Shown one piece after another: positions 137 to 31,890 of a DNA stretch of 32,000 nt. The notes under the pieces were generated by a model, which did no database searches, was not told the DNA's origin, and worked only from the letters and a program-made list of their open reading frames with translations. Numbering within the stretch: the first letter of the stretch is position 1; the number at the start of each line of letters is the position of its first letter. Made by a program: the position numbers and the translations under genes. The stretch is from Dehalococcoidia bacterium (GTDB taxonomy: Bacteria > Chloroflexota > Dehalococcoidia > Lucifugimonadales > JAGWBF01): positions 1 to 32,000 of the forward strand of contig JAGWBJ010000004.1 of the NCBI GenBank assembly GCA_021295955.1. Direction: 5' to 3'.

Positions 137-171
137 TGTAGCCGGACCTTGCCTGGGAGGGGCATCCCTGC

Positions 172-933: not shown

Positions 934-937
934 AGGG

Positions 938-2877: not shown

Positions 2878-2888
2878 AGGAGGGACCC

Positions 2889-4901
2889 ATGACCCGACCC
2901 ATATCCCCCGACCTGGTGTACCACCTTGTGACCGTCGCGGAGCCCTGCATCTCGCCCGACGGAAGACGCGTCGCCTTCGTACGGTCCTCGGTGGATAGGA
3001 AGTCGATGGAGACCCGCTCCCGGGTCATGATGATGGACATCCCTCAAGGAAGCGCGTCCCCAGAGGATGCCGTGCCCTTCACCCGGGGCCCAAAGGACAC
3101 CGCCCCCCGCTTCTCCCCCGACGGGTGCTCCCTGGCATTCCTCAGGCCCGACGAGGGGGGCAAGGCCCAGGTGTGGCTGATGTCCCTTTCGGGGGGCGAG
3201 CCCCGCCGCCTTACGGAGATGCCCTGCGGGGTCAGGTCGTACGCCTGGTCCCCCGACTCTCTCCGGCTGGCTCTGGTGTCCGACGACGACCCGGACCGGG
3301 TCCCGGAGGGCCGCGACGCGGCGGCGGACCCCCGGGTGACGGTGGTCCGGCGGGTCCGGTACCGGTCCGACACCCTGGGGTGGAGGGGCGATGCCCACAG
3401 CCACATCTTCACCATCGACGCCGCCGGCGGGCAGGCCACCCGGATCACCCAGGGGGACTGGGATGACCATGGTCCGGTCTGGTCCCCCGACGGCTCCACG
3501 ATCGCCTTCATCTCCAACCGCCGGGACGACCGGGACTTCGTGCCTTACACCGAGGCCTACACGGTGCCCTCGGGCGGCGGAGAGGCGGTGCTGCTGTCCG
3601 GGGACCTTCCAAGCGTGGCCGGGATCACCTGGTCGCCGGCGGGCGACCGGGTCGCCTTGGTGGCCTCGGACGACCCGGCGGTGGAGGCGGGCTGGCAGGG
3701 ATGGGTCTTCGTGATCGATCCCGACGGTGCATGTAGGCGCCTGACCGACGACCGGATAAAGCCCGTGGCCGGCTTCGCGCCGGTGACCTCGGCGGCGGAG
3801 CTGGCCTGGAAGGACGACGGGCGCATCCTCTTCATCGCAGACTCCCGGGGCGAGTCCCACGTGTGCCAGGTCGGCCCCTCGGGCGGCTACGTCCGCCGCA
3901 TCTGGGGCGGCGGCCTCCAGCTCGCCTCGGTGGCCTGGGACCTCCGGGGCAGCTCCGCGGTCGTGGCGGCGGCGTCGCCGGCCTCCTCGGGCGACCTGCA
4001 TCTGGTGGACCTCCAAGCGGGCTCGTCCCGGCGCATAACCGGCTACAACGACGGCTACCACCAGGAGCGGCCGACGGCGCGCCTGGAGAAGCTGGTTCAC
4101 TCCCGAGCCGGAGTGGAGATAGAGAGCCGCCTGCTTCTGCCGCCCGACCACGACCGGGCCCGCCGCTATCCCCTGGTGGTGGACATTCACGGAGGCCCTC
4201 ACGGGTCCTTCTACGACGCCTTCAACCCCGTGCAGCAGGTGCTGTCTACGGCGGGATACGCGGTGCTGTGCGTCAACCCCAGGGGCTCCTCCACCTACGG
4301 CGCCGACTTCCTTAAGGCCGTCCTTGGCGATTGGGGAGGCGAGGACTACCTGGACATCATCAGTGCGGTGGAGGAGGCGTGCGCCCGCCCGGACATCGAC
4401 CCGGCGCGGCTGGGCCTCCACGGGTACAGCTACGGAGGGTACATGAGTAGCTGGACCGTGGGCCACGACAACCGCTTCGGCGCCGCGGTGGTGGGCGCCC
4501 CGTGCATCGACCTGACCAGCATGTACGGCACTTCGGACATCGGAGTCAGCTTCGGAGAGCGCCAGTGGGGCGGCAGGATGGTGGATGCGGAGGCGGCCAT
4601 GCGGCAGCGCTCCCCCCTGACCTACGCCGCCCACGTCGAGACGCCGGTGCTGCTGCTCCACGGCGAGGAGGACCGGCGCTGCCCCATCGAGCAGAGCGAG
4701 CAGTATTTCGTGGCCCTGAAGCGCCTGGGCAAGGTGGTCGAGCTCGTCCGGTTCCCCGGCGCATCCCACGGGCTGCTGCGCACGGGACATCCGAGGCTGA
4801 GGGAGGAGTACCTCATCCGGACGCTGGCGTGGTTCGACCGGCACCTGGCGTCCCCGCCCCGTCGGGAGTCTGCGGGAGAGGCCCGGCCGCAAGGGGATTA
4901 G
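2889..4901 (+). CDS. S9 family serine peptidase (acylaminoacyl-peptidase/prolyl oligopeptidase type) with N-terminal beta-propeller
   Basis: Repeated SPDG propeller motifs (ISPDGRRVAF, FSPDGCSLAF, WSPDSLRLAL, WSPDGSTIAF). C-terminal alpha/beta hydrolase with the nucleophile elbow GYSYGG and the ASHGL His region. SD GAGGAGGG precedes the ATG at 2889. The 1362-2888 part of the listed ORF is an out-of-frame shadow of the previous gene. Confidence 0.85.
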   Translation: MTRPISPDLVYHLVTVAEPCISPDGRRVAFVRSSVDRKSMETRSRVMMMDIPQGSASPEDAVPFTRGPKDTAPRFSPDGCSLAFLRPDEGGKAQVWLMSLSGGEPRRLTEMPCGVRSYAWSPDSLRLALVSDDDPDRVPEGRDAAADPRVTVVRRVRYRSDTLGWRGDAHSHIFTIDAAGGQATRITQGDWDDHGPVWSPDGSTIAFISNRRDDRDFVPYTEAYTVPSGGGEAVLLSGDLPSVAGITWSPAGDRVALVASDDPAVEAGWQGWVFVIDPDGACRRLTDDRIKPVAGFAPVTSAAELAWKDDGRILFIADSRGESHVCQVGPSGGYVRRIWGGGLQLASVAWDLRGSSAVVAAASPASSGDLHLVDLQAGSSRRITGYNDGYHQERPTARLEKLVHSRAGVEIESRLLLPPDHDRARRYPLVVDIHGGPHGSFYDAFNPVQQVLSTAGYAVLCVNPRGSSTYGADFLKAVLGDWGGEDYLDIISAVEEACARPDIDPARLGLHGYSYGGYMSSWTVGHDNRFGAAVVGAPCIDLTSMYGTSDIGVSFGERQWGGRMVDAEAAMRQRSPLTYAAHVETPVLLLHGEEDRRCPIEQSEQYFVALKRLGKVVELVRFPGASHGLLRTGHPRLREEYLIRTLAWFDRHLASPPRRESAGEARPQGD

Positions 4902-4916
4902 GCCGCCCGAGGACCC

Positions 4917-5678
4917 CTAACCGTGTACCACCGTTGCTGAGCGGTCCTGGAAGACGACGCATCTCGTCAGCCACTTGGTAAACCAGAGCCATGCCCAGGG
5001 GATCGTAACGATGGGCAGGCTGGCCAGTATCATCGCGATGCCTCGCCACAGGAACCCCAGACCGTTGCCTACGAACACCCCTTGCCTGGGGCCGATGTTC
5101 AGGTTCTGGCATATCCACCCCATGAGGCGCGACAGGACCCATGCCCAACCTATGATGGTGAAGATGGAGAGTACCAGCAGTACGGAGAGCCCGAGGAGAG
5201 GCCAGTACGTGCCCGTGAACTCCGTGCGCTCCCCGCTGCTCAGCCTCGAGTGCTGTGCGAACCAGCGCAGGACGACCAGGTTGACCCACGGATCGATGAA
5301 TATGGAGACCAGGACCAGGACCGGATAGAGCCTTCCCAGGATGCTCACTATGCCCTGAACGACGAAATACCACCAGATCTGACCGCCGGTCCCCTCGAAC
5401 CAGGCTTGGGTGCCGTCGCTGAACCACACGTTCCTTACGTACCACCGGCTCAGCGAGGCGACGCCCCAGCCGGTGGGAACGATCACCAGCGAGAGCAGGA
5501 TCAGCCAGGTGACCCAAACGTACGCTTGGGACGTGGTGCCCATGAACTGGAGGGTGACTCGCCCATCCCCAGGGGTTGCGGTCACGCCGGTCCCGCAGTT
5601 GCCGCAGAAGAAGGCGCCCGGCTCCAGCGTCTCGCCACACCTGGTACAGGGTCCGGGGATGTTCTCGGCGCCGGCCAT
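4917..5678 (-). CDS. Zinc-ribbon plus DUF898 (YjgN-like) multi-pass membrane protein
   Basis: N-terminal CxxC...CxxC (CTRCGETLEPGAFFCGNCG) followed by Trp-rich hydrophobic helices with a DUF898-like layout. It starts 10 nt downstream of the dehydrogenase stop on the same strand. Confidence 0.6.
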   Translation of the reverse strand: MAGAENIPGPCTRCGETLEPGAFFCGNCGTGVTATPGDGRVTLQFMGTTSQAYVWVTWLILLSLVIVPTGWGVASLSRWYVRNVWFSDGTQAWFEGTGGQIWWYFVVQGIVSILGRLYPVLVLVSIFIDPWVNLVVLRWFAQHSRLSSGERTEFTGTYWPLLGLSVLLVLSIFTIIGWAWVLSRLMGWICQNLNIGPRQGVFVGNGLGFLWRGIAMILASLPIVTIPWAWLWFTKWLTRCVVFQDRSATVVHG

Positions 5679-5688
5679 CAGGTCCTCG

Positions 5689-6699
5689 CTATCGCAGGCT
5701 GGTGCGGTTGTTGGCCTGGCTCAGGACTTGCGGGTTGACGGTGTTGTCGGGCATGCGTCCCGTCAGGACCCGGGCCACCTCCTGGGTGGCCCGTACCTGG
5801 AGCTCTCTCACCGAGTCCCGGGAGAAGAACGCCACGTGGGGCGTGACGATCACGTTGTCCAGGCCCAGCAGGGGGTGGTCCGGGGGAGGGGGGACCTCCA
5901 CGAGGAGGTCCAGGCCGGCGCCCGCTATGCGCTTCTCCCTCAGGGCCTGATGGAGGGCCTCCTCGTCGATCAGGGCCCCTCGGGCCACGTTGATGAGGAA
6001 CGCCGACGGCTTCATCCTGTCCAGGGCGTCCTTGTCGATGAGGTTTCGGGTCTCGGGGGTCAGGGGCGTGTGGACCGAGACGAAGTCCGACTCCGCCAGC
6101 AGCGTATTCGTGTCCACCAGGCGTGCGCCGGCGGCTTCCGCGTCCTCCGCCGAGACGAAGGGGTCCGCGCCCATCACCTCCATGCCGAAGGCGCCCGCCT
6201 TTCGCGACAGGGCCTTCCCTATCCTGCCCAGGCCGATGATGCCCATCGTCCTTCCCCTGAGCCGCCGGATGGGCATGGTCAGCTCGACGTGCCAGCGGCC
6301 CGCCTTCACCGACGAGTCGAAGAGGTTGATGCGGCGGTTCCAGGCCAGCAGCAGCGCCAGGGCGTGGTCCGAGACCTCGTCCACACAGTAGTCGGGCACC
6401 CACGTGACCAGTATGCCCAGGCGGGTTGCAGTGTCCACTGCGATGTTGTCTACCCCGACCCCGTAGCGGCCTATGACCACACACCGTTTGGCGGCCTCCA
6501 CGACCTTGGGCGTAACCTGGGCAAAGCAGGTGAGGATGCCGTCGACGTCCTCGGCCAGGGCGGCCAGGGTCTCCTCCCTGCCGTCCGGGGCCACCACCAG
6601 CTCTCCTCCTATGGCGGCCATCACCTCCCGCTCGGGGTCTACGGAGGGCCATACGTAGTCGGTGACGAGGACTCGGAACCCGCTGCCTGCTGGGGCCAT
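5689..6699 (-). CDS. D-isomer-specific 2-hydroxyacid dehydrogenase (NAD-binding, PGDH/CtBP-like)
   Basis: GIIGLGRIGKAL Rossmann motif. Family motifs LLAESDFVSVHTPLTPETRNLI, LINVARGALIDEEAL, GAGLDL and TPHVAF. Confidence 0.85.
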   Translation of the reverse strand: MAPAGSGFRVLVTDYVWPSVDPEREVMAAIGGELVVAPDGREETLAALAEDVDGILTCFAQVTPKVVEAAKRCVVIGRYGVGVDNIAVDTATRLGILVTWVPDYCVDEVSDHALALLLAWNRRINLFDSSVKAGRWHVELTMPIRRLRGRTMGIIGLGRIGKALSRKAGAFGMEVMGADPFVSAEDAEAAGARLVDTNTLLAESDFVSVHTPLTPETRNLIDKDALDRMKPSAFLINVARGALIDEEALHQALREKRIAGAGLDLLVEVPPPPDHPLLGLDNVIVTPHVAFFSRDSVRELQVRATQEVARVLTGRMPDNTVNPQVLSQANNRTSLR

Positions 6700-11260: not shown

Positions 11261-12475
11261 TTGGCGACCCAGATCGTGATGCCGCGGATGAACTACGACA
11301 TGCGGGAAGGCACCGTCGTCCGTTGGCACAAGGCCGAGGGGGACGTGGTGTCCCGCGGCGACGTCATCGCCGAGATCGAGACCGACAAGGCCACCGTGGA
11401 GATGGAGTCCTTCTGGGACGGCATCCTGGGGAGGATAGTCGTCGAGGAGGGGCGCGCCGTCCCCGTGGGAGAGGTGCTCGCGGTGATAACCGAGCCCGGA
11501 GAGGCCGCCCCGCCGGTGGAGTCGTTGCGGTTCCCACAGCCTTCTCCCTCTTCCCAGGGGAGCGAAGAGTCCACCGGCGCCGCTGGGCTAGGCCCGGGAC
11601 CGGAGTCCGCTGCCGATCCTCCCGCTCCACCTTCGGGTGTCAGGGCCAGCCCCATAGCCCGCCGCCTGGCCCGAGAGAGGGGGATCGACCTGGCGGCGGT
11701 CACGGGCACCGGGCCCGGGGGACGGGTGACCGAGACAGACGTGCTGGCCCACCAAGAAGGCCAGCTGGCCCCCGAGGCCGCCTCGGCGGGAGGCAGAATC
11801 GACCTGTCGCGGATGCGCCAGGCCATCGCCGGAGTCACCTCCCGGAGCAAGCGGGAGGTGCCCCATTTCTACGTCACCTCCGAGATAGACATGGACAGGG
11901 CTGTGGACCTGCGGGCTCAGCTCAACGATGCCGTTGGGGACGGACACGGGTCCCGGGTAAGCGTCAATGACCTGATCGTCAAGGCCGCGGCCAGGAGTCT
12001 GGAGAGGTTCCCCAAGTTCAACGCGTCATTCGAGGGCGACCACCTGGAGCTCCATGGGGACGTCAACATCGCCATAGCCGTCGCCCTGGAGGAGGGCCTG
12101 ATCCTTCCGGCCATCGCCGGGTGTCAGAAGAAGTCGCTGCGGGAGATCGCGGCGGCCAGTACCGACCTGGTCCAGCGCGCCCACGGCGGCACGCTGCGGG
12201 CGGAGGAGTACGCAGGTGGCACTTTCGCCGTCAGCAACCTGGGGATGTTCGACGTGGACAGCTTCGCCGCCATCATCTATCCCCCCAACGCCGCCGTCCT
12301 GGCCGTCGGCAGGGTCGCGGAGCAGCCCGTAGTGCGCAACGGCAGGGTGACCGTGGGGCACGTCATGAAGGCCACCCTCTCCGTGGACCACCGGGTAGCC
12401 GATGGCGCCGAGGGAGCGAGGTTCCTGAAGAACGTGAAGGGCCACCTGGAGAACCCGGTGAGCTTGCTGCTCTAG
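11261..12475 (+). CDS. Dihydrolipoamide acyltransferase (E2) with lipoyl, E1/E3-binding and catalytic domains
   Basis: Lipoyl-lysine motif EIETDKATVEMES, PSBD ASPIARRLARERGIDLAAVTGTGPGGRVTETDV, and catalytic DHRVADGAEGARFL. TTG start 5 nt after SD AGGAGG. Confidence 0.85.
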   Translation: MATQIVMPRMNYDMREGTVVRWHKAEGDVVSRGDVIAEIETDKATVEMESFWDGILGRIVVEEGRAVPVGEVLAVITEPGEAAPPVESLRFPQPSPSSQGSEESTGAAGLGPGPESAADPPAPPSGVRASPIARRLARERGIDLAAVTGTGPGGRVTETDVLAHQEGQLAPEAASAGGRIDLSRMRQAIAGVTSRSKREVPHFYVTSEIDMDRAVDLRAQLNDAVGDGHGSRVSVNDLIVKAAARSLERFPKFNASFEGDHLELHGDVNIAIAVALEEGLILPAIAGCQKKSLREIAAASTDLVQRAHGGTLRAEEYAGGTFAVSNLGMFDVDSFAAIIYPPNAAVLAVGRVAEQPVVRNGRVTVGHVMKATLSVDHRVADGAEGARFLKNVKGHLENPVSLLL

Positions 12476-12501
12476 GCATCTGGAGGTCATCCGCACAGAC
12501 C

Positions 12502-13950
12502 GTGTCCACAGGCGACAAGACAGCCCACCCCCGCCGCGTATACCCCCTTAGCACCAAGGACCTGACCGAGGAGCAGATCGCCGTGGTGTTCGCGATGACC
12601 TCCCGGCGGCCAGAGCCCTTCGATGAGATAGCCGAACAGGTGAGCCGGGAGACGGCGGCCAGCTTCCACGAGCGGTGGGTGCTGGGATATGGCCACGCGT
12701 CGGTCGCCGAGCACGCCGTCATACACATGGCCGTGGAGAACGTCTCCCGCCTGGCCTGCGACACCCTGGAGGACAACCGCCTGGGCTCCTACACGGAGAA
12801 GTCCTCCCGCTACCAGCTCCTGCCCTCGGGCTACTACCACGTCCCCGCCGAGCTGGACCCTCATCCGGAGGCTCGGACGCTTTACATAAACACCTGCGAC
12901 CATCTGTCGGGGGCCTACGCGCGGGCCGTGGAGGGCGCTACCTCCCACTTGAAAAGCCGGGTCCCCCAGCGCGATGGGGAGAGGGACTCGGCATACGCCC
13001 TGAGGATCAGGCGTCAGGTCATCGATAGCTGCCGTTTCCTCCTTCCGGCGTCCACGTTGACCAACGTGGGGGTCACCATGAACGCGCGGCTGATGGAGCA
13101 TGCCATCACCAAGCTGCTGTCGTCGGAGCTGGCGGAGGAGCGCAGCCTGGGCGACGACCTGAAGGACAAGGGGAGGGAGGTCACCCCGACCCTCATTAAG
13201 TACGCCGAGCCCAACCCGTACCTGGCGTCCTCCCGGGAGTGGCAGGTACGGTCGTCACCCGGGGGAGGGGAGACCGATGACTGTCATCCAGAGGCCGCGC
13301 TGGTGCGCTACGACGCCCAGGCCGAGCAGAAGGTGGCTTCGGCGTTCCTGTACAGGTCCGCCGGGCTGCCCTACGACCGGGTGTGGCGCATGGTCGAAGA
13401 CATGGACCGCCAGGACCGGGAGAGGGCCATAGACGGCTGCCTGGAGGGGTTGGGCGACCACGACGCGCCCCTCCGGGAGCTGGAGATGGTGGACTACACC
13501 TTCGAGTTCGTCATGGACTACGGCGCGTACAGGGAGTTCAAGCGTCACCGGATGCAGACCTACGTCCCCCAGCCACTGACCGTCGCCAACGGGTACCTGA
13601 CGCCCGACCTGGTGAGAGAAGCCGGTCTCGGGGACCTGTTCGACGAGGCGATGGGGAGCGTGGGTGAGGCTTTCCACAGGTTGTCTGAGGTCTCGGCCTC
13701 CTTGGCCCAGTACGTCGTCACCCACGCCCATCGACGGCGTTTCCTGGCGAGGATGAACCTGCGGGAGTGCTATCACATCTTCAAGCTGCGCACCCAGCCC
13801 CAGGCCCACTTCTCCATACGCGGGCCCGTGGAGGCCGCCATGCGCCAGGCGGTGGAAACCCACCCAGCCCTGTTCAAGCACCTCCGCCTGCGCAAGTTCC
13901 CCGATTGGTGGGGGGACCTGTACGGCGGCGATGCACGGGGAAGGGCATGA
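12502..13950 (+). CDS. ThyX-like (flavin-dependent thymidylate synthase fold) tandem-domain protein
   Basis: N-half GYGHASVAEHAVIHM...SRLACDTLEDNRLGSYTEKSSRYQ resembles the ThyX core and the S-x-R-Y part of the ThyX motif. The C-half carries YREFKRHRMQT plus a second ThyX-like C-terminus (ECYHIFKLRTQPQAH). The start (GTG 12502) is uncertain. The 12121-12475 part of the listed ORF is a shadow of the E2 gene. Confidence 0.55.
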   Translation: MSTGDKTAHPRRVYPLSTKDLTEEQIAVVFAMTSRRPEPFDEIAEQVSRETAASFHERWVLGYGHASVAEHAVIHMAVENVSRLACDTLEDNRLGSYTEKSSRYQLLPSGYYHVPAELDPHPEARTLYINTCDHLSGAYARAVEGATSHLKSRVPQRDGERDSAYALRIRRQVIDSCRFLLPASTLTNVGVTMNARLMEHAITKLLSSELAEERSLGDDLKDKGREVTPTLIKYAEPNPYLASSREWQVRSSPGGGETDDCHPEAALVRYDAQAEQKVASAFLYRSAGLPYDRVWRMVEDMDRQDRERAIDGCLEGLGDHDAPLRELEMVDYTFEFVMDYGAYREFKRHRMQTYVPQPLTVANGYLTPDLVREAGLGDLFDEAMGSVGEAFHRLSEVSASLAQYVVTHAHRRRFLARMNLRECYHIFKLRTQPQAHFSIRGPVEAAMRQAVETHPALFKHLRLRKFPDWWGDLYGGDARGRA

Positions 13951-22399: not shown

Positions 22400-23023
22400 T
22401 TGCGTCATTATGAGCTGGTAGTTGTGCTGAGTCCCATCCTGTCCCAGGAGGAGGCCGCCGGGGAGTGGGACCGCATCAAGTCCCTGGTGCATCGGAACGG
22501 CGGCGGAGACCCCTACGAAGAGCGTTGGGGCATGAGGAGGCTAGCCTACCCGATAAAGAAGGCTGGGCAGACCTTCCTGGAGGGCAACTATCTCCTCACC
22601 CGTTTCAGCTCGGACACCGTGGTGCCTCCCGAGCTGGAGGGCCACCTGAGGCTTTCGGAGAGCGTCCTCCGGTACCTCCTCACCAAGTCAGGCCCCCCCG
22701 AGTCGACGCCCCCGTCGCCGCAGATGGTCCAGATGGCCCGGGCCGCCGAAATCCGTCAGCAGCAGGCCGCCGCGGCACAGGCCGCCGCCGCTGCTACGGC
22801 CCAGGAGGCCGAGCAGTCCTCCGCTGCCGCTACGGCCCAGGAGGCCGAGCAGTCCTTCGCTGCCGCTACGGTCCAGGAGGCAGAGCAGCCCTCCGCCTCC
22901 GCCGACGTGCTCGAGGAGCAGGCCCCTGCGGATGGCGCGCCCGCCGGCGAAGGCGCGGTCGAGGAGCCGGCGGAAGAGGCCCCGGCGGAAGAGGCCCCGG
23001 CTGCCGCCCAGGAGCCGGAGTAG
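22400..23023 (+). CDS. rpsF: 30S ribosomal protein S6 with a long Ala/Glu/Gln-rich repeat extension
   Basis: MRHYELVVVLSP...WGMRRLAYPIKK...GNYLL...VLRYLL is the canonical S6 core (about 97 aa), followed by a low-complexity tail of about 110 aa. TTG start. Confidence 0.85.
   Translation: MRHYELVVVLSPILSQEEAAGEWDRIKSLVHRNGGGDPYEERWGMRRLAYPIKKAGQTFLEGNYLLTRFSSDTVVPPELEGHLRLSESVLRYLLTKSGPPESTPPSPQMVQMARAAEIRQQQAAAAQAAAAATAQEAEQSSAAATAQEAEQSFAAATVQEAEQPSASADVLEEQAPADGAPAGEGAVEEPAEEAPAEEAPAAAQEPE
22793..22900 (+). repeat. Three 36-nt in-frame tandem repeats inside the rpsF tail (ATAQEAEQSSAA units)
   Basis: The three units are 22793-22828, 22829-22864 and 22865-22900. Units 1 and 2 differ at 1 nt. 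Unit 3 differs at a few positions. A further 15-nt duplication (CCGGCGGAAGAGGCC x2) lies near 22969-22998. Confidence 0.85.
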
Positions 23024-23803: not shown

Positions 23804-24004
23804 CCCGCGCCTGCATCCAACCCCGAGGCGACGCAGCACCGGGCCCCGGGGACCGCGGAGACCGGACCTACGCCAACGACACCCCCACCCGAGGATAGCT
23901 TGGACTCGACCCGCGATAGTCACCCCCCATCTCAGGACCAGGGCGCACCAGCGCGCGAGGACCGGCGCCGGCGGGTCCAGCGGTCTCGAAGCCGGGATCC
24001 CCGT

Positions 24005-25063
24005 ATGGAACGCGCCGCAGGCAAGCCCCGGCGGCGGCTGGCCATAGGGATCGGAGTATTCTTCATCCTGGCCATCGCAGCGGTGGTGGGCTACGGCTAC
24101 TACGACAGGTTCGTAGCCCCCACCAAGGTGCTGGCCGCCAGGGTCGGCAACACCCGATACACCCAGGGCGACCTGGTGGACCGGATGCGCGTGCTTCAGG
24201 CGGACGCCCGCGCCGAAGGGCAGCCCTTTGACCTGGGTAGGACGCCCTTCGAGGTGCTGGACAAGATGTCCGAGGCGGAGGTAATCCGCAGGTTCGCGTC
24301 GGAATACGGGGTCCAGGTGACCGATGAAGACATCGAGTTCGGGCTTCTCCTGCGCTTCTACCCCAGGGTGCCCGAGGGCCAGGAATCGGTGTCCGGCCAG
24401 ATCGAGCAGGAGTACAAGGACACCTACCAGCGGTTCCTGAACGAAAGCCACATCGACGACGAGGCGTACAGGGGCATAGTCGAGGAGACCATATACCGAT
24501 CACGGCTCAGGGCTGCCCTGGGCGAGCTTGTCCCTGCTACGTCGGAGCAGATGGAGGTCCACTGGATCCGCGTCCAACCCCAGGGAGGGTTGCCCATACT
24601 GGGGCAACCCCGGAACGTCTCGCCCGAGGAGGTGCTCCGAAAGCTGGAGACGGCCGACTTCGACGAGGTCGCCATGGAGGTGTCCATTCCCGGACCCTAT
24701 GCCGACCGGGAGGGGTACGTGGGCTGGGTGCCCAGAGGGGCGTTTCCTCGCCTGGACGCCGTGCTGTTCGGGGACGAGTCGACAGACCCTATACCTCTCA
24801 ACCGGCCCAGCGGCCCGGTCCTCCTCGATGATGGCGCCTATATACTAAAGGTGACCGGCGGGCCCGAGGTACGGGAGGTCTCCCAGGTCATGATCGATCG
24901 CCTGAAGGAGCAGGCGCTGGACCAGTGGCTGGGCCAGAAGAAGATCGAGGGGTCCGAGGAGGGGTGGCTGGAGGTGAAGTTCGACAGCAAGATATATGAC
25001 TGGGTGATAGGACAGATGAGGCAGTCGGCCGGACCACCGACTCCCGAGCCCGCCGCCCAGTGA
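24005..25063 (+). CDS. Membrane-anchored peptidyl-prolyl isomerase-like protein (SurA-N/PpiD-like plus parvulin-type domain)
   Basis: Basic N-terminus and one TM helix (LAIGIGVFFILAIAAVVGYGYY), then a SurA_N-like helical region. A parvulin-like segment follows (MEVHWIRV...ADFDEVAMEVS...EGYVGWVPRGAFPRLDAVLFG...GPVLLDDGAYILKV). ATG 24005 is preferred over the TTG at 23900. Confidence 0.65.
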   Translation: MERAAGKPRRRLAIGIGVFFILAIAAVVGYGYYDRFVAPTKVLAARVGNTRYTQGDLVDRMRVLQADARAEGQPFDLGRTPFEVLDKMSEAEVIRRFASEYGVQVTDEDIEFGLLLRFYPRVPEGQESVSGQIEQEYKDTYQRFLNESHIDDEAYRGIVEETIYRSRLRAALGELVPATSEQMEVHWIRVQPQGGLPILGQPRNVSPEEVLRKLETADFDEVAMEVSIPGPYADREGYVGWVPRGAFPRLDAVLFGDESTDPIPLNRPSGPVLLDDGAYILKVTGGPEVREVSQVMIDRLKEQALDQWLGQKKIEGSEEGWLEVKFDSKIYDWVIGQMRQSAGPPTPEPAAQ

Positions 25064-26385
25064 CACGGGACACCTTGCATGGCGCCGACGAGATAGGGGT
25101 CGGTCTCATGGGCCTGGGGGTGGTGGGGGGCGGCGTGGCCGCGACCCTGTTGGACCCCGCACAGCACGTCGCCCGCACCGTGGGTCGGCCCGTCTCCCTC
25201 AAGCGAGTCCTGGTCCGGCAACCGGACAAGGAGCGCCAGATGGGCGTCCCTCCCGGGATCCTCACCGCCGACCCCACTCTCCTGCTGAACGATCCGAGCA
25301 TCCAAGTCGTGGTAGAGGTCATAGGTGGCGAGGAGCCCGCCAGCAGCTACATCCGGCAGAGCCTCTCCCGTGGCAAGAGCGTAGTCACCGCGAACAAGGA
25401 GGTGATGGCCAAGGAGGGGCAGGAGCTTCTGACCCTCGCCGCCGCCAGGGGCGTCGACCTGCTGTTTGAGGCCAGCGTAGGAGGCGGTATACCCATAGTT
25501 GGCCCGCTCATGAAGGACCTGCTGGCCAACGACATTCGGTCCATACAGGCCATCATCAACGGCACGACCAACTACATGCTGACTCGGATGGCCCGGGACG
25601 GCATGGACTTCGACGAGGCCCTGAAGGAGGCCCAGGGCCTGGGTTTCGCAGAGGCGGACCCGGCCAACGACGTCGAGGGCATCGACGCGGGCTACAAGCT
25701 GGCAGTGCTGGCCTCCCTGGCCTTTCACACCCAGGTCCGGGCCGAGGACGTGCACAGGGAGGGCATATCGGGCCTGCGGGCCAGGGACTTCCGGTACGCC
25801 CACGAGCTTGGCTACGCCATCAAGCTGCTGGCTATCGCCAGGCGCGAGGGAGGGCAGGTCCAGGCGCGGGTCCACCCTTGCTTCGTCCCCCAGGAGCATA
25901 TGCTGGCCAAGGTGGACGGCGTCTTCAACGCCGTGGAGGTGGAGGGAGACCTGACGGGCAAGATCCTGTTCCACGGCCGCGGCGCGGGGCGTGAGCCCAC
26001 CACCAGTGCCATCATAGGGGACCTCGTGGAGGTTGCCAAGAAATTAGGGGCGGGCGGGGGACCTGCGCCCTTCTTTCCGCCCGGCAACAGCCTGACCGTG
26101 GCCCCCATGTCCGAGCTGGTGACCAGGTACTACATTCGTCTGGGCGCCGCCGACAGACCGGGGGTCTTGGCCCAGATCGCCAGGGTGCTGGGAGACCAGG
26201 ACGTGAGCATCGCGTCGGTCATTCAGAAGGACTCCAACCCGGGTTCTCAGACGGCGGAGCTGGTGGTTACCACCCACCCCGCCAGGGAGAAAGCGGTCCA
26301 GGAGTCGTTGCAGCGCATGCGTGGTCTCCAGGTCGTGCGTCAGGTGGACAACCTGGTCAGGGTCGAGGACTGGCCCTCGGACTGA
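25060..26385 (+). CDS. hom: Homoserine dehydrogenase with C-terminal ACT domain
   Basis: Rossmann GLMGLGVVGGGV, catalytic-domain motifs (IINGTTNYMLT, GFAEADPANDVEGIDAGYKLAVLA), and ACT domain (YYIRLGAADRPGVLAQIARVLGDQDVSIASV). The GTG start overlaps the preceding stop (GTGA). TTG 25075 is an alternative. Confidence 0.85.
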   Translation: MTRDTLHGADEIGVGLMGLGVVGGGVAATLLDPAQHVARTVGRPVSLKRVLVRQPDKERQMGVPPGILTADPTLLLNDPSIQVVVEVIGGEEPASSYIRQSLSRGKSVVTANKEVMAKEGQELLTLAAARGVDLLFEASVGGGIPIVGPLMKDLLANDIRSIQAIINGTTNYMLTRMARDGMDFDEALKEAQGLGFAEADPANDVEGIDAGYKLAVLASLAFHTQVRAEDVHREGISGLRARDFRYAHELGYAIKLLAIARREGGQVQARVHPCFVPQEHMLAKVDGVFNAVEVEGDLTGKILFHGRGAGREPTTSAIIGDLVEVAKKLGAGGGPAPFFPPGNSLTVAPMSELVTRYYIRLGAADRPGVLAQIARVLGDQDVSIASVIQKDSNPGSQTAELVVTTHPAREKAVQESLQRMRGLQVVRQVDNLVRVEDWPSD

Positions 26386-26489
26386 TCGCCGGCCGGCCGT
26401 TGGGAAGGGCCCTTTCCGCCCCGGACTCTGCTGCCCGACGGGAATCGGCGCCGGCGGCGGATGGGTCTAGCCAAGCCCCCTGTAGTGTG

Positions 26490-26495
26490 TATAAT
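26490..26495 (+). promoter_or_regulatory. Candidate -10 box upstream of the folE leader
   Basis: A perfect TATAAT at 26490-26495 in the hom-folE intergenic region, with no convincing -35. Confidence 0.3.
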
Positions 26496-26556
26496 AACTG
26501 AGGTTGGGAGCAGGGGCTCCGGCGGCCACAAACCCCAGGAGGTGAACACCGCGCTT

Positions 26557-26655
26557 ATGGATCCGGCTCCCAGAAAGATGCCCGGAAGGATGCCCGGAAG
26601 GATGCCCGGAAGGATGCCCGGAAGGATGCCCGGAAGGATGAAGGAGGATGGTTGA
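26557..26655 (+). CDS. Putative upstream/leader ORF MDPAPRK(MPGR)5MKEDG, overlapping the folE start
   Basis: ATG at 26557. The frame is maintained through the 12-nt repeats. TGA at 26653-26655 lies 5 nt after the folE ATG (ATGGTTGA). The longer listed ORF from 26461 is less likely. Translation is unproven. Confidence 0.35.
   Translation: MDPAPRKMPGRMPGRMPGRMPGRMPGRMKEDG
26578..26637 (+). repeat. Five perfect 12-nt tandem repeats (ATGCCCGGAAGG) immediately upstream of folE
   Basis: Exact head-to-tail copies at 26578, 26590, 26602, 26614 and 26626. Degenerate copies flank the array (CCCAGAAAG before, ATGAAGGAGG after). Confidence 0.95.
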
Positions 26656-27220
26656 GGGGCAAGCCGTCGAGACGGCGGTCGCCTCCATCCTGAAGGCCTT
26701 AGGCGAAGACGCGGGCAGGGAGGGGCTTAGAGACACACCTCGGCGGGTCGCCCGCATGTACTCCGAGCTGTTCTCAGGCGTCGGCGTAGACCCCCGCTCG
26801 GCCATCGATGCCATCTTCGAAGAAGAGCGTCACGAAGAGGCTGTGGTGGTCCTACGGGGTGTTCCCTTCTACTCCATGTGTGAACACCATCTGATGCCGT
26901 TCTACGGGCAGGCCCACATGGGGTACGTTCCCAAGAGCAAGATAGCCGGCGCCAGCAAGCTGGTTCGTGCCCTCGAGGTCGCCGCCCGCAGGCCGCAGAT
27001 ACAGGAGAGGCTCACGGCGCAAGTGGCGGACGCGGTCCATGACGTCTTGGACACGGCGGGGACCGGCGTCGTCATCGAGGCCGAGCACCTGTGCATGTCC
27101 ATGAGAGGGGTGCAGAAGCGCGGCAGCGTCGTCGTCACGTCGGCGACCCGTGGCGATTTCGACGAGGCCGGAGTCCGCCGCTCCCAGCTAATGTCTATGG
27201 TCCAAGGGCGGGCCGCGTGA
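26648..27220 (+). CDS. folE: GTP cyclohydrolase I (FolE type 1)
   Basis: GLRDTPRRVARMY, FYSMCEHHLMPFYGQAHMGYVP, RPQIQERLT and IEAEHLCMSMRGV are the canonical FolE motifs, including the Zn ligands. Confidence 0.9.
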   Translation: MVEGQAVETAVASILKALGEDAGREGLRDTPRRVARMYSELFSGVGVDPRSAIDAIFEEERHEEAVVVLRGVPFYSMCEHHLMPFYGQAHMGYVPKSKIAGASKLVRALEVAARRPQIQERLTAQVADAVHDVLDTAGTGVVIEAEHLCMSMRGVQKRGSVVVTSATRGDFDEAGVRRSQLMSMVQGRAA

Positions 27221-28200
27221 CCCCCTTTACGCGTCTCGATTCCTACCAGGGTGCTCGGGCCCACTGGGAGGCCCTTCTCCCGTGTTGCATTGCCAACACC
27301 TTCTTCATGACGCCCCAATGGCAGCAGGCCTGGTGGGACCAGTTCGGCGACGGGACCGAGATGATGCTGCTGGAACTGATGGAGCACGGCGGGGTGACGT
27401 GCATCGCCCCGCTGGCGAGAAGGGATCGCACCATCTCCTTCATCGGCGGCCAGGACCTGTTCGACTACAACGACTTCCTCGTGTCTCCCGGCTCCGAGGA
27501 CAGCTTCTACACGTCCCTGATGGACCTGCTGGACGATGAGGACTGGGATACCGTCGACCTGCCGTCTCTTCAGGACGGGTCTCCCACCCTGACCTACGTG
27601 CCGGACTTGGCCCAACGCCTGGGATACTCGGTCCAGATCGAAGAGGAGGACGTGGCGCCGTCGGTGATGCTGCCGGCGGACTGGGACTCGTACCTCCAGC
27701 TCCTGAGCAAGAAGGACCGTCACGAGCTGCGTCGAAAGCTGCGGCGCCTGGGGTCCTCCGGCCAGGAGGTCCACCACTACAAGCTCTCGGATCCGGCGGA
27801 GGTGGAGGCGGGACTGGACGACTTCTTCTCCCTGATGAGATTCAGCAAGGAGACCAAGGACACCTTCTTGACCCCAGGCCGGGAGAGCTTCTTCCGCAGC
27901 GCCGCCCTGGCGATGGCCAGGATCGGGGTATTCAGGCTGTTCTTCCTGGAGTTCAACCAGGAGCGGGTGGCCGCGGCCATGTGCTTCGACTACGGCGATA
28001 CCAGACACCTGTACAACAGCGGCTTCAACCCCGAGTATCGCTACTATAGCGTCGGCCTCGTTCTGAAGGCCCTTTGCGTGAAGGACGCCATAGAGGAGGG
28101 CAAGGCCCGCTTTGATTTCCTGAGAGGGGCCGAACCGTACAAGTACGACCTGGGTGGCAAGGACCGGACGATCTATCACATGGTGGTCAGACGCAGTTGA
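27217..28200 (+). CDS. GNAT-fold protein of the CelD/BioF2-like (Acetyltransf_6, FemAB-related) family
   Basis: N-terminal W..L......FF.TP.W...WW..FG and the C-terminal family signature YNSGFNPEY...SVG...FDFLRGAEPYKYDLGG. The GTG start overlaps the folE stop (GTGA). Only this start keeps the conserved N-terminus. Confidence 0.75.
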   Translation: MTPFTRLDSYQGARAHWEALLPCCIANTFFMTPQWQQAWWDQFGDGTEMMLLELMEHGGVTCIAPLARRDRTISFIGGQDLFDYNDFLVSPGSEDSFYTSLMDLLDDEDWDTVDLPSLQDGSPTLTYVPDLAQRLGYSVQIEEEDVAPSVMLPADWDSYLQLLSKKDRHELRRKLRRLGSSGQEVHHYKLSDPAEVEAGLDDFFSLMRFSKETKDTFLTPGRESFFRSAALAMARIGVFRLFFLEFNQERVAAAMCFDYGDTRHLYNSGFNPEYRYYSVGLVLKALCVKDAIEEGKARFDFLRGAEPYKYDLGGKDRTIYHMVVRRS

Positions 28201-29393
28201 GCGCGGCCCGAGTCGCCCTGTTAAGCTTCCACACCTGCCCCCTGGCTCCCACCGGCGAGGGGAAGGCCGGCGGCATGAACGTCTACGTGCGTGAGGTGTC
28301 CCGGAATCTCGGCAGGGCCGGCGTCCCCGTCGACCTCTTCACACGCAGCCACGCCGGGCACTGCCAGGGCGTCACGAACCTGGAGGACAACGTCAGGCTG
28401 GTGCACCTGGAGGGTGGGCCGGAGACCGCGGCCCCCAACGAGTTGTATCCGTACCTGGAGTCCTTCCTGGAAGGGCTGGTCGCCCATGCCCGGCAGGAGG
28501 CCGTCCGGTACCGGCTGGTGCACTCCCACTACTGGCTGTCGGGCTGGATCGGCCAGCGCCTGTCCAGCCGGTGGCGGGTGCCCCACGTCGTCACCTTCCA
28601 CACCCTGGGAGACGTGAAGATGCAGGCCAAGGCCGGCGAGAGGGAGTCCGACCAGCGGGGCTCGGTGGAGAGGGAGCTTGCCTCCGGGGCGCATCTGATA
28701 ATCGCCTCCAGTCCCCACGAGGAGGACGCGCTGGTCCATCTCTACGACGCGGACCGGGGCCGCATCGAGGTAGTGCCCTGTGGCGTGGACCTGTCCATCT
28801 TCAAGCCCCTGGACATCGGCGAGGCCCGAAAGCGCCTGGGCCTGAACGGAGAGCGCGTCGTGCTCTATGTCGGGCGGATCGAGGCTATCAAGGGTGTGGA
28901 CCTTCTGTTGAAGAGTGCTGCTATAATGGATGGCAAGGACTCCCTGAAAGTTCTGGTCGTGGGAGGCGATGCGACCCGGGGCGGGGAGGTGAGGCGGCTC
29001 AAGGGCCTGGCCGAGGAGTTGGGCATCGGGCAGGTGATGGAGTTCGTCGGCATGGTGGACCAGAGCCTGCTGCCCCTCTACTACAACGCCGCGGACGTGT
29101 GTGTCGTCCCATCCTACTACGAGAGCTTTGGACTCGTAGCCTTGGAGGCCCTGGCCTGCGGCACTCCGGTGGTGGCCTCCAGGGTGGGAGGTCTGCCGAC
29201 GGTGGTCCAGCATGCCAGGACGGGTTACCTCCAGTCCTGGCGGTGCCCCGAGCCCTTCGCCGACTCCCTGGAGGTAATCCTGGGCAGCAAGGTGCTCAGG
29301 AACAGCATGAGCAGGGAAGCCCGCAAGAGGGCCGAGGGCATGGGGTGGGAGATGGTCGCGGAAGAGACCAGCCGCCTTTACGATTCCCTGTAG
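28197..29393 (+). CDS. mshA: GT4 glycosyltransferase of the MshA family (D-inositol-3-phosphate N-acetylglucosaminyltransferase-like)
   Basis: MshA-specific blocks LLSFHTCPLAPTGEGKAGGMNVYV, HSHYWLSG, FHTLGDVK and HLYDADRGRIEVVPCGVD, plus the GT4 core ESFGLVALEALACGTPVVASRVGGLP. The TTG start overlaps the preceding stop (TTGA). Confidence 0.75.
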   Translation: MSAARVALLSFHTCPLAPTGEGKAGGMNVYVREVSRNLGRAGVPVDLFTRSHAGHCQGVTNLEDNVRLVHLEGGPETAAPNELYPYLESFLEGLVAHARQEAVRYRLVHSHYWLSGWIGQRLSSRWRVPHVVTFHTLGDVKMQAKAGERESDQRGSVERELASGAHLIIASSPHEEDALVHLYDADRGRIEVVPCGVDLSIFKPLDIGEARKRLGLNGERVVLYVGRIEAIKGVDLLLKSAAIMDGKDSLKVLVVGGDATRGGEVRRLKGLAEELGIGQVMEFVGMVDQSLLPLYYNAADVCVVPSYYESFGLVALEALACGTPVVASRVGGLPTVVQHARTGYLQSWRCPEPFADSLEVILGSKVLRNSMSREARKRAEGMGWEMVAEETSRLYDSL

Positions 29394-29414: not shown

Positions 29415-30146
29415 GTGCCCTCACAGCCTCCCAAGATAGCCAAGTGGTTGGCGCTCATCGGCCGTCATTTCCGCACGAGACTGCTGGGCGGCCTGCTGCT
29501 CATCGTCCCGGTAGGCATCACCTTCCTGATCCTGAAGGCCATCTTCGACTTCTTGGACCCATTGTTGAAGGACTTCATGGACCAGTTCATCACCGTCTAT
29601 CCCGGCATGGGCATAGTCGCGCTGGTCATCGTCGTCTACCTGGCCGGGATCCTGGCGACGCAGGTCGTGGGAAAGCGGATCATCGACTTGGGCATCAACG
29701 TGGTGGACCGGATACCCGTGGTCAGCGGCGTCTACCGGGCCGCCCGCCAGGCCACCGACGTGTTCTCCAACGTGGCCGGGAACGGCAGATACAGCAGCGT
29801 GGTCCTGGTGGAGTTTCCGGGCTACGGCCTCACGTCGGTGGGTCTGGTCACGGGGAAGATAAAGGACCAGAAGGGCAACGACCTACTGGCCGTATACATG
29901 CCCACGTCGCCCTTCCCCACCTCTGGGTTTCTGATAATCCTGCCCGAGGACCAGGTCACCCCCACCGACCTGGCGGTGGACGACGCCATAAAGATGATAG
30001 TCACCGCCGGGGTGGTAGTCCCCGATTCCATCGACGCCGACTACTACCCCTTCCAGCACGCGCCGTCGGTGGCGCGTAGGGCCAGTCCTGTCGGCGTGAC
30101 TATGGAGGAGACTCAGTCCGCGGACAATGTCTCCTCGAACCAGTGA
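29415..30146 (+). CDS. DUF502 family membrane protein
   Basis: Two N-terminal TM helices (LLGGLLLIVPVGITFLILKAIF, GMGIVALVIVVYLAGILA). DUF502 core motifs RIPVVSGVYRAARQ, VVLVEFP, YMPTSPFPTSGFLIILP and AIKMIVTAG. GTG start 9 nt after AGGAG. Confidence 0.7.
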   Translation: MPSQPPKIAKWLALIGRHFRTRLLGGLLLIVPVGITFLILKAIFDFLDPLLKDFMDQFITVYPGMGIVALVIVVYLAGILATQVVGKRIIDLGINVVDRIPVVSGVYRAARQATDVFSNVAGNGRYSSVVLVEFPGYGLTSVGLVTGKIKDQKGNDLLAVYMPTSPFPTSGFLIILPEDQVTPTDLAVDDAIKMIVTAGVVVPDSIDADYYPFQHAPSVARRASPVGVTMEETQSADNVSSNQ

Positions 30147-31018
30147 AGCCTGGCCTCTTCCCGGAAGCCCACCGACGTGTAGAGCCCTATGGCCGGCGCG
30201 TTCTCGCTGTCCACTTCTAGCTGGATAGACCCCACGCCCCTGGCCCTCATGTGCTCCATCCCGCGCAGCAGCAACGGCTTGCTCAGCCCCTGGCCCCGGT
30301 ATTCCGGCACCACTCCGATCATGGAGATGAACCCCACCGAGCGGCCGGGGGCTCCCATAATGCGCGTCCAGCAGTACCCGGCAACGGCGTCGTCCCGCCG
30401 CAGGAGGAGCACCCCTTCGGGTCCCGTGCCGGTCATGGCGACCCTGTAGGCCACCTCCTCCGTTGTGTTGGGGCTGAATCCCCAGCTTCCCGTGAAGGCC
30501 TCGTTCTGCGCCATGGTGAGGAGGTGTTCCTCCCCGGGCCTCAGGCTTCGTAGCTCGAAGCCATCGGGGAGCTCCGGCCTGACGAGCTCCGGTCGCCGCC
30601 ACCTCAACACCAGGTACTCCCGGACTTTCGAGAACCCGTTGCTCTCCAGCAGGCCGGCCCAACGCTCCGGGTCGTATACACAGACGTGGACGTAGTCGGC
30701 GCCCAACTCCCCGGCCCTGTCCAGGCTGGACCGCATAAGTAGCGACTCCACACCCGTCCACGCGTGGTGGGGGTGGACGTTCAACTCCAGCACGGCCCGG
30801 CCGATACGGAGCTCGGGGTGCACTATCGCGAAGCCCACGGGGCCTTCCTCGCCTACGGCCACCGTGCAGTTGGCCTCGGGGCATAGCCCAGGCTGGCCCA
30901 GCTCCTCTTCGAGCAGCTTGTTGGGAAGGGCGTCCTCCTCGCCGCCGGCCCGTCGGAGCAGGTTCTTTAGGTCGGCCAGCGCTGGCAGGTCGGACCACGT
31001 GAAATTTCGCGTTCTCAA
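30113..31018 (-). CDS. mshD: Tandem-GNAT acetyltransferase of the mycothiol synthase (MshD) family
   Basis: Two GNAT halves with MshD-like blocks: LELNVHPHH, VREYLVLRWRRPELVRPELPDGFELRSL, NEAFTGSWGFSP, GYCWTRI, MIGVVPEYRGQGLSKPLL and QLEVDSENAPAIGLYTSVGF. The TTG start at 31018 is preceded by AGGGAG. The longer listed ORF (to 31270) has no homology-like N-terminus. Confidence 0.65.
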   Translation of the reverse strand: MRTRNFTWSDLPALADLKNLLRRAGGEEDALPNKLLEEELGQPGLCPEANCTVAVGEEGPVGFAIVHPELRIGRAVLELNVHPHHAWTGVESLLMRSSLDRAGELGADYVHVCVYDPERWAGLLESNGFSKVREYLVLRWRRPELVRPELPDGFELRSLRPGEEHLLTMAQNEAFTGSWGFSPNTTEEVAYRVAMTGTGPEGVLLLRRDDAVAGYCWTRIMGAPGRSVGFISMIGVVPEYRGQGLSKPLLLRGMEHMRARGVGSIQLEVDSENAPAIGLYTSVGFREEARLHWFEETLSAD

Positions 31019-31185: not shown

Positions 31186-31890
31186 ATGGACGAGACGCCC
31201 GGCCGCGTGCTGGTTGTGATACCCCATCCCGATGATGCCGAGGGGTGGTGCGGTGGTACCGTCGCAGCATGGGTGAAGGGCGGCGCCCGGGTGGTCTACG
31301 TTCTCTGTACGGACGGGAGCAAGGGCACCGACGACCCCGAGATGTCCCCCCAGCGCCTGGCCCAGATCAGGGAGAAGGAGCAGCTCGAAGCGGCCTCCGT
31401 CCTGGGCGTGGAGGACGTGGTGCTCCTGCGCCATGCCGACGGAGAGCTGGAGGACACTTACGAATTTCGCAGGGAGCTCGTCCGTGCCATTCGCCTCCAC
31501 CGGCCGGACGTGATACTGTGCCCCGACCCGTACCGGCGCAAGTCCCACTGGCACAGGGACCACCGCATCGCCGGTCAGGTCGCGGCCGACGCCGCCTTTC
31601 CCTACGCCCGGGACCACCTGCACTTCCAGGAGCTGTACCGTGACGAGGGACTGGAGACGCACAAGGCGGGCACTATCCTTTTTTGGGCCCCCGACACCCC
31701 CGACACCCACATCGACATCGGCGGGCACATCGACACCAAGGCCCGGGCGCTGGTGTGCCACCAGAGCCAGAACCCGGGTAGGACCGTGGAACAGGCGGCG
31801 GAGGGAATAAGCCAGCGCGCCCGCCTGTCGGCTGCAGGCTCCCAGGTGGAGTATGCCGAGGCGTTTCGAAAGGTGGAGTTCCGCCGCTAG
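31186..31890 (+). CDS. PIG-L/LmbE family deacetylase (MshB/BshB-like)
   Basis: VLVVIPHPDDAEGWCGGTVA, the DG..ED region and HRDHR metal/catalytic motifs typical of PIG-L. ATG 31186 lies 7 nt after GGGAGG. Confidence 0.8.
   Translation: MDETPGRVLVVIPHPDDAEGWCGGTVAAWVKGGARVVYVLCTDGSKGTDDPEMSPQRLAQIREKEQLEAASVLGVEDVVLLRHADGELEDTYEFRRELVRAIRLHRPDVILCPDPYRRKSHWHRDHRIAGQVAADAAFPYARDHLHFQELYRDEGLETHKAGTILFWAPDTPDTHIDIGGHIDTKARALVCHQSQNPGRTVEQAAEGISQRARLSAAGSQVEYAEAFRKVEFRR

Follow-up and report, generated by a model that had tools for sequence, protein, structure and literature searches.

A conserved folE-GNAT-glycosyltransferase cluster in SAR202-type Dehalococcoidia, possibly for an aminoacylated glucosamine conjugate

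Deep-ocean water and groundwater contain SAR202 and related Dehalococcoidia in abundance, but hardly any members of these groups are in culture. This report concerns a gene cluster on contig JAGWBJ010000004.1 of assembly GCA_021295955.1 (Dehalococcoidia bacterium), in which folE is followed by genes for an acetyltransferase-like protein and a glycosyltransferase. The window, that is, the whole stretch of DNA analysed (32,000 nucleotides, positions 1 to 32,000 of the forward strand), belongs to a SAR202-type Dehalococcoidia metagenome-assembled genome (MAG), and the record closest to it is OZ219931.1. Gene boundaries were read between 26300 and 30300, and families were assigned by Pfam and NCBIfam scans. 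The cluster starts on the plus strand with folE (26648..27220), encoding a GTP cyclohydrolase I type IA of 190 aa (PF01227, TIGR00063). The second gene (27217..28200, plus strand, GTG start) encodes a double-GNAT protein of 327 aa of the Acetyltransf_6/FemAB-like type, characterised by Pfam, an AlphaFold2 (AF2) model and Foldseek and called GNAT6 below. The third (28197..29393, plus strand, TTG start) encodes a GT4 glycosyltransferase of 398 aa that resembles MshA and sucrose-phosphate synthase (SPS) in TIGR03449 and PDB matches. Further downstream are genes for a DUF502 membrane protein (29415..30146, plus strand; PF04367 at 84 bits), a tandem-GNAT MshD-like acetyltransferase of 301 aa (30113..31018, minus strand; TIGR03448, Acetyltransf_1) and a PIG-L/LmbE-family N-acetylglucosamine (GlcNAc) de-N-acetylase of 234 aa (31186..31890, plus strand; PF02585 at 106.6 bits). 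An initial annotation, made from the letters alone, had named the first three genes as those of FolE, a CelD/Fem-like GNAT protein and an MshA-family glycosyltransferase, and the Pfam/NCBIfam scans bear these family assignments out. That annotation did not take in DUF502, the MshD-like gene, PIG-L or the FemX-like fold of GNAT6, which together indicate a logic of the mycothiol/bacillithiol type. The reading tentatively preferred here, with somewhat less than an even chance of being right, is that a clade-specific module builds an N-aminoacylated glucosamine conjugate by this logic, with folE as a housekeeping partner.

The three leading genes are joined by overlapping stop and start codons. 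folE and GNAT6 share GTGA at 27217-27220 (folE TGA at 27218-27220, GNAT6 GTG at 27217), and GNAT6 and GT4 share TTGA at 28197-28200 (GNAT6 TGA at 28198-28200, GT4 TTG at 28197), exactly where the initial annotation had placed the two overlaps. Both downstream genes have non-ATG starts, and the Shine-Dalgarno-like sequences ahead of them are only weak. The GTG at 27217 is supported as the start of GNAT6 by the lengths of its best 240 homologues, nearly all of which have 324-352 aa and align end to end (query cover 100%), and by the public gene call of a 94%-identical relative (L081), in which the same 4-nt folE/GNAT6 overlap is present. A start at GTG 27091 is ruled out, as the overlap with folE would then be 130 nt and the homologues, at 324-330 aa, are too short for it. 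The alignment of GT4 to CgMshA and to TeSPS, the SPS Tll1590 of Thermosynechococcus elongatus, begins at residue 4-5 and covers the invariant H9, G17 and G23; the TTG at 28197 is therefore the right start. The public call in L081 (11059-12177) begins GT4 at Met27, which is too short because it drops the H9, G17 and G23 that match MshA. The same call also conceals the 4-nt overlap of GT4 with its upstream gene in that genome. Overlaps, weak ribosome-binding sites of the downstream genes and maintenance of the arrangement across species, the usual marks of translational coupling, are all found here, and folE is probably co-transcribed with the module and, judging from the overlaps, translationally coupled to it. 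The surA-like gene (23900..25063, plus strand; Pfam SurA_N_3) and hom, encoding homoserine dehydrogenase (25060..26385, plus strand; Pfam and NCBIfam matches), also overlap by GTGA at 25060-25063 of the window, and one relative (L085) has 4-nt overlaps at surA/hom and at thrC/folE. Overlaps of 4 nt are usual in the window's genome and join unrelated genes too.

The conservation of the cluster was followed in a scan with one genome per species, which gave 577 confirmed loci. The best 80 were kept, all of them from Dehalococcoidia, SAR202 or Chloroflexota and with GNAT6 identities of 44-94%; up to about 21 kb was read around each, and neighbours were counted by tblastn and clustering of open reading frames (ORFs). 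In seven further loci (L081-L085, L088 and L089) gene order was read from independent gene calls with Pfam labels. GT4 lies directly downstream of GNAT6 in 77 of the 80 loci (median gap -4), the two genes sharing 4 nt in 47 of these 77. GNAT6 is itself immediately preceded by folE in 71 of the 80, with a median gap of 2 bp; the gap is <=20 bp in 65 of the 71, and the genes overlap in 11. DUF502 is present in 68 loci and follows GT4 in 67, PIG-L is found downstream within 3 kb in 60, and an MshD-like gene is present in 34-39. Upstream, a surA-like gene occurs in 55 of the 80, and thrC (about 353 aa) stands between hom and folE in 72 (L002-L080, at about 4300-5430). The conserved block reads rpsF-ssb-rpsR-surA-hom-thrC-folE-GNAT6-GT4-DUF502-(MshD-like)-PIG-L, and the folE-GNAT6 order is likewise kept in the gene-called loci. 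The initial annotation had held that folE adjacency conserved in no relative would point to chance juxtaposition; the adjacency is conserved in 71 of 80 species as well as in L082-L085, L088 and L089, and the description of folE-GNAT6-GT4 as one tightly packed unit holds. Only in the window and in the relative nearest to it does the unit sit behind one leader, as the annotation had it; elsewhere thrC precedes folE, at a median distance of 42 bp. A search for relatives outside the clade, with the divergent L061 protein as query, returned among its best 120 matches only members of the same 324-351-aa Chloroflexota family (one of them a 283-aa fragment).

The GT4 protein scores best against the MshA model TIGR03449 among the NCBIfam models, with 373.6 bits, which is below the equivalog cut-off of 462.5. 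The next models are glgA_Coryne (144 bits) and BshA (100 bits). Among solved structures, GT4 matches both CgMshA (3c48) and TeSPS (6kih) at 267 bits; the best PDB matches are MshA and SPS, and no pteridine glycosyltransferase was found among the PDB matches at E <= 1e-10. In an alignment of 72 family members with MshA and TeSPS, the equivalents of MshA Y110, H133, T134, R154, R231, K236, E316 and E324 are invariant, and M24 and T134 follow MshA, not SPS. The invariant positions include the catalytic His and Glu residues and the Arg and Lys that bind UDP. Of the phosphate ligands of MshA, reportedly K78, Y110, T134 and R154 (Vetting et al., 2008), three have invariant counterparts, namely Y110, T134 and R154 (R178 in TeSPS). 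The residue roles in TeSPS have been confirmed, and both enzymes use phosphorylated acceptors, inositol phosphate in MshA and fructose 6-phosphate in TeSPS (PMC7264703). These residues lead us to predict a small phosphorylated compound as the acceptor of GT4, and its linkage to a deacetylase gene suggests that the donor is UDP-GlcNAc.

GNAT6 belongs to Acetyltransf_6 by Pfam score (103 bits), and FemAB_like PF04339 gives only 16.2 bits (cut-off 27). The AF2 model (pLDDT 94, pTM 0.91) contains two GNAT domains in a Fem-like overall fold. The top Foldseek matches to this model are 6snr, 7z5y, 1ne9 and 4ii9 (E about 1e-12, TM 0.65-0.68), and the best PDB folds are those of FemX, Sbb17/Sba18 and the C-terminal synthase domain of MprF, with TM values of 0.59-0.68 overall and 0.65-0.68 for FemX. 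Tandem GNATs that use acetyl-CoA match the model worse (TM 0.37-0.53). The family has an invariant Lys/Arg-rich helix, LSKKDRHELRRKLRRL, at residues 163-178, with K166, R168, H169, R172, R173, K174, R176 and R177 invariant on helix 165-179 of the model, and an invariant Y308-K309 near the C-terminus in the motif YK309YDLGG. Two features of Fem-type enzymes are a helix of positive charge that binds tRNA and a catalytic lysine (FemX Lys305) (PMC12945691); in description, the basic helix and YK motif of GNAT6 appear to resemble them. By reading of the sequences, GNAT6 is without the acetyl-CoA motif (Q/R)xxGxG/A and the MshD-like neighbour has one. GNAT6 is predicted from its modelled fold to be an aminoacyl-tRNA-dependent aminoacyltransferase.

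These data bear on the view that the genes share no pathway at all and were packed together by genome compaction. GNAT6 would then be an acyl-CoA acyltransferase of the CelD/BcsL type, in agreement with the JGI label of its homologues ("CelD/BcsL family acetyltransferase"), and GT4 an unrelated sugar-phosphate synthase, for example for a compatible solute. The array does mix ribosomal proteins, hom, thrC and folE with short gaps, and GT4 is as near to SPS as to MshA. Genes brought together in this way would nevertheless have to account for the adjacency of GNAT6 and GT4 in 77 of 80 species, with overlap in 47, for a GlcNAc deacetylase within 3 kb in 60 loci, and for a GNAT6 protein that has no acetyl-CoA motif and a fold nearest to tRNA-dependent enzymes. 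We regard independent packing as unlikely.

The genes downstream of GT4 add to the picture of an amino-sugar pathway. DUF502 starts 21 nt after GT4 and probably closes the operon; a role in export would be a guess. Its 3' end and that of the MshD-like gene on the opposite strand overlap convergently by 34 nt (30113-30146). The MshD-like protein scores 95.5 bits against TIGR03448, below the cut-off of 163, and also matches Acetyltransf_1; its PDB matches are MAB_4324 (55.6 bits) and MshD (43.7 bits). The TTG start at 31018 was taken from the L081 gene call, and the ORF itself reaches 31270. The PIG-L protein scores 93.6 bits against the BshB1 model, below the cut-off of 182.5. In two species (L065 and L069, 6001-8500) GT4 is missing from its usual place and the next genes after GNAT6 are DUF502 and PIG-L, which suggests that the glycosyltransferase lies elsewhere in the genome or has been lost.

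The membrane protein and the deacetylase could also be read as parts of an envelope pathway, in which GT4 would attach GlcNAc to the head group of a phospholipid (as PIG-A or a GlcNAc-phosphatidylglycerol synthase would), PIG-L would turn the product into a cationic glucosamine lipid, GNAT6 would aminoacylate it in the manner of MprF and DUF502 would flip it, folE being unrelated. The MprF synthase domain is indeed among the best structural matches of GNAT6, DUF502 follows GT4 in 67 of 80 loci, PIG-L is the deacetylase family of the glycosylphosphatidylinositol pathway, and GT4 has a weak match (74.5 bits) to the GlcNAc-phosphatidylglycerol synthase model. The score of GT4 with MshA, an enzyme with a soluble acceptor (373.6 bits), is however about five times higher than with the models of lipid glycosyltransferases, and the acceptor residues of MshA and SPS are retained. 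In addition, neither GNAT6 nor GT4 has a membrane domain of its own, and a divergent groundwater clade (L082-L084) lost DUF502 and kept GNAT6 and GT4. A lipid or envelope glycoconjugate is quite unlikely as the product.

Under the preferred reading of an aminoacylated glucosamine conjugate, the pathway would run in four steps. The MshA/SPS-like GT4 would use UDP-GlcNAc to put a GlcNAc residue on a small polyol or sugar that bears a phosphate, and the PIG-L deacetylase would expose the 2-amino group. The FemX-like GNAT6 would then acylate the exposed group with an amino acid supplied by aminoacyl-tRNA, a role played elsewhere by the tRNA-independent ligases MshC and BshC, and in about half of the species the MshD-like acetyltransferase would cap the new alpha-amine. 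DUF502 may handle the product at the membrane. The donor sugar, the acceptor, the dependence on tRNA, the order of the steps and the nature of the product, a thiol or otherwise, are inferred. MshC itself is a tRNA-independent paralogue of cysteinyl-tRNA synthetase (CysRS) (PMC2922099). Neither mshC nor ino1 was seen in the window or in the conserved surroundings of the loci, read over up to about 21 kb each. Searches of the literature turned up no account of this cluster, no low-molecular-weight thiol, glucosamine metabolite or redox buffer described for Dehalococcoidia, and no Fem-like enzyme with a part in a pathway of this kind. The near-universal module is a concrete and testable candidate for a new compound of the mycothiol/bacillithiol type, and, if the reading is true, it would contain the first tRNA-dependent ligase to replace MshC or BshC in such a pathway.

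Several observations weigh against this reading. The GT4, MshD-like and PIG-L proteins all score below the mycothiol/bacillithiol equivalog cut-offs, and the PDB matches of PIG-L favour an archaeal diacetylchitobiose deacetylase (119 bits) over BshB1 (51 bits) and MshB (22 bits). The fourth presumed phosphate ligand of GT4, at MshA K78 (R105 of TeSPS), is variable in the family (L, K, V or M), with P in the window protein. GNAT6 has no match to Pfam FemAB PF02388 in the Pfam scan and no sequence-level match to solved Fem proteins in a PDB profile search, and we know of no Acetyltransf_6 protein that uses aminoacyl-tRNA. Lastly, no junction of the array is tighter or better conserved than that of folE with GNAT6. 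The strongest point for a real link of folE is the groundwater clade L082-L084, in which the folE/GNAT6 overlap is kept while GT4 lies 33-200 bp away and DUF502 is gone; purely historical adjacency does not obviously predict the maintenance of this overlap.

The same junction also speaks for the proposal of the initial annotation, a glycosylated or acylated pterin as the product of the operon. In this scheme FolE would give GT4 its acceptor, dihydroneopterin triphosphate or neopterin, PIG-L would yield a solfapterin-like neopterin-glucosamine, and GNAT6 and the MshD-like protein would acylate it. Dihydroneopterin triphosphate is a phosphorylated polyol and GT4 retains acceptor-phosphate ligands. 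The statement of the annotation that pterins are glycosylated by group-1-type enzymes was about right, the pteridine glycosyltransferases being GT-B enzymes modelled on GT4 templates, one of which uses UDP-GlcNAc (PMC4133829, PMC5683033). The solfapterin of Sulfolobus is given as neopterin-glucosamine in a passage of PMC3546692 that cites Lin & White (1988), and its synthesis would need exactly a GlcNAc transferase and a deacetylase.

FolE is a canonical enzyme and looks like a housekeeping one. It scores 223.3 bits against PF01227 (cut-off 27), 213.6 bits against TIGR00063 (cut-off 181.6) and 238.1 bits against NF006826 (cut-off 162). The C-E-H-H and H-x-C motifs, read in the translation as 'YSMCEHHLMPF' and 'EAEHLCMSMRG', are present; we take their residues to be the zinc and catalytic ones from knowledge of E. 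coli FolE. The protein has a single domain without fusions, shares 55-58% identity with the FolE proteins of other phyla (Anaerolineae, Acidimicrobiia and Hyphomicrobiales), and has a homologue in a folE-folP-folK arrangement in an Anaerolineae MAG. The public call of L081 gives the same 190-aa folE. A second FolE was not found on the same contigs when the match lists of FolE and GNAT6 were compared, which is weak evidence. ThyX and serine hydroxymethyltransferase (SHMT) are encoded elsewhere in the window, so the organism uses folate. The best explanation is that folE is an ordinary canonical GTP cyclohydrolase I that feeds folate synthesis and is co-expressed with the module as a housekeeping gene.

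folE and the module are also separable in both directions. In L087 (GCA_034189695.1, JAXHUA010000141.1, locus 1-6360) the order rpsR-surA(rotamase)-hom-thrC-folE is kept without the GNAT6-GT4 module, and in six other loci thrC is followed by GNAT6 with no folE. The L087 locus has an opposite-strand ABC transporter in the place of the module, and small genes (for a glyoxalase and a flavin reductase) are inserted in its array. The 6-pyruvoyl-tetrahydropterin synthase (PTPS) and sepiapterin reductase genes, which the initial annotation had proposed to look for, and other pterin genes, phosphatase included, are absent from the window, from L081-L089 and from the conserved ORF clusters of the 80 loci. 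The nearest characterised relatives of GT4 use inositol phosphate and fructose 6-phosphate, and the unrelated genes of the surrounding housekeeping block are packed just as tightly. The canonical FolE, the lack of pterin genes, the separability of folE and module, the housekeeping block and the MshA/SPS-like GT4 thus speak together against a glycosylated or acylated pterin, which we consider distinctly improbable. A more specific form, in which the FolE product is the aglycone of a solfapterin-like neopterin-glucosamine that is aminoacylated, possibly with cysteine, by the tRNA-using FemX-like enzyme to give a new cofactor or thiol, is a long shot; if true, it would explain why folE is welded to a ligase gene across the class. 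A simpler account can be given for the conjugate reading with a housekeeping folE: a downstream gene without a ribosome-binding site of its own would leave the overlap frozen, and its persistence need not mean shared chemistry. For readers of genomes the caution is that a conserved overlap with a housekeeping gene, such as folE, thrC or hom here, does not alone imply a common pathway.

Two other uses of a FolE product were set aside. Queuosine synthesis starts with FolE, the vertebrate enzyme that makes mannosyl-queuosine is a GT4, and GNAT6 may bind tRNA. Glycosylation of tRNA queuosine was set aside here, as no que or tgt genes occur in any locus and GT4 is strongly MshA-like. A deazapurine cluster of the huimycin type was ruled out by the absence of QueC, QueD and QueE.

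The region ahead of folE differs between the window and most relatives. In the window and in L001, which is 94% identical to it, thrC is missing between hom and folE, and a 262-bp spacer (26386-26647) stands there instead. The spacer has a promoter-like site, TAGCCA-16 nt-TATAAT (26468..26495, plus strand), that fits the consensus at 10/12 positions in a scan and is identical in L001, and a Shine-Dalgarno sequence AAGGAGG that ends 3 nt ahead of the folE ATG. Between them lies a 12-bp tandem repeat, CCCGGAAGGATG, in 6 copies (26569..26640, plus strand; Tandem Repeats Finder score 130). About 4 copies are found in L001, and the repeat is absent from the other loci. A possible upstream ORF runs from ATG 26558 to TGA 26653-26655, its stop lying past the folE ATG at 26648. 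It reads MDPAPRK(MPGR)5MKEDG*, with the repeat as (MPGR)n, and is also in frame in L001; the 12-bp repeat may thus form part of an upstream ORF that overlaps the folE start. A riboswitch or attenuator in the leader was rejected, with no Rfam match even at E <= 1, and so was a structured RNA, as shuffled sequences fold better than the leader does (z = +2.5 for the leader).

Upstream of folE, the window has rpsF, ssb, rpsR, the surA-like gene and hom. The ORF for ribosomal protein S6 (22400-23023) encodes 207 aa, with the S6 domain only at residues 3-96; two repeats lie in the part for the C-terminal half, one with a unit of 36 bp (3.3 copies, 22778-22896) and one with a unit of 15 bp (2.7 copies, 22961-23001). 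Farther upstream, the ThyX ORF (12121-13950) has two ThyX (Thy1) stretches, which suggests a duplicated or fused flavin-dependent thymidylate synthase, and its listed start overlaps the gene for an E2 acyltransferase (11261-12475).

Among known systems, the proposed pathway resembles that of mycothiol. GT4 has MshA as best match and conserves M24, N25, Y110, H133, T134 and R154; the deacetylase is of the LmbE/PIG-L family, and a two-domain GNAT resembles MshD. The implied order of GlcNAc addition, deacetylation, acylation of the amine and capping is the same. It differs in that the three window proteins fall under the equivalog cut-offs and K78 is not conserved, and in that the locus has no MshC, the CysRS paralogue, and has instead a FemX-like double GNAT whose gene overlaps GT4. 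Furthermore, msh genes are dispersed in genomes, whereas those of the window are clustered and joined to folE, and the host belongs to the Dehalococcoidia, not the Actinobacteria. Bacillithiol synthesis shares the chemical logic of a GT4 and a PIG-L deacetylase, BshB1 being the best NCBIfam match of the latter. In contrast, GT4 is far closer to the MshA model than to that of BshA (373.6 vs 100 bits), PIG-L is closer in the PDB to the archaeal chitobiose deacetylase than to BshB1 (119 vs 51 bits), and no BshC is found at the locus.

The FemABX, MprF and Orf11 (Sbb17) enzymes share with GNAT6 a double-GNAT architecture of about 330 aa and are its best structural matches, and GNAT6 has a conserved basic helix and an aromatic-Lys motif near the C-terminus that may correspond to features of theirs. 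Sbb17 and Sba18 aminoacylate the amino sugar of streptothrisamine from aminoacyl-tRNA (PMC12945691), so Orf11/Sbb17 shows that Fem-type enzymes can aminoacylate an amino sugar. Unlike them, GNAT6 belongs to Pfam Acetyltransf_6 and not FemAB, has no detectable sequence similarity to solved members, and stands in the context of neither peptidoglycan synthesis nor an antibiotic cluster. The pteridine glycosyltransferases BGluT, PgtA and CtPGT are GT-B enzymes related to GT4, and CtPGT uses UDP-GlcNAc. The glycosylated pterins (biopterin glucoside, tepidopterin, limipterin and solfapterin) have a precursor from FolE, and solfapterin carries glucosamine. The GT4 of the window, however, falls in the MshA/SPS clade, and no tetrahydrobiopterin genes were found near it; to our knowledge, no pteridine glycosyltransferase gene is known to be linked to folE. 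TeSPS (6kih) matches GT4 at 267 bits, with the equivalents of its His158, Arg178, Arg249, Glu331 and Glu339 conserved. GT4 differs from TeSPS in having Met at Gln51, as in MshA, a non-basic residue at Arg105 and Leu or Ile at Arg253, and the presence of a linked deacetylase makes GlcNAc a likelier sugar than glucose for the transfer. Overall, the component families are all known and their chemistry may be predicted by analogy with these systems, and the combination and, if real, the tRNA-dependent step would be new.

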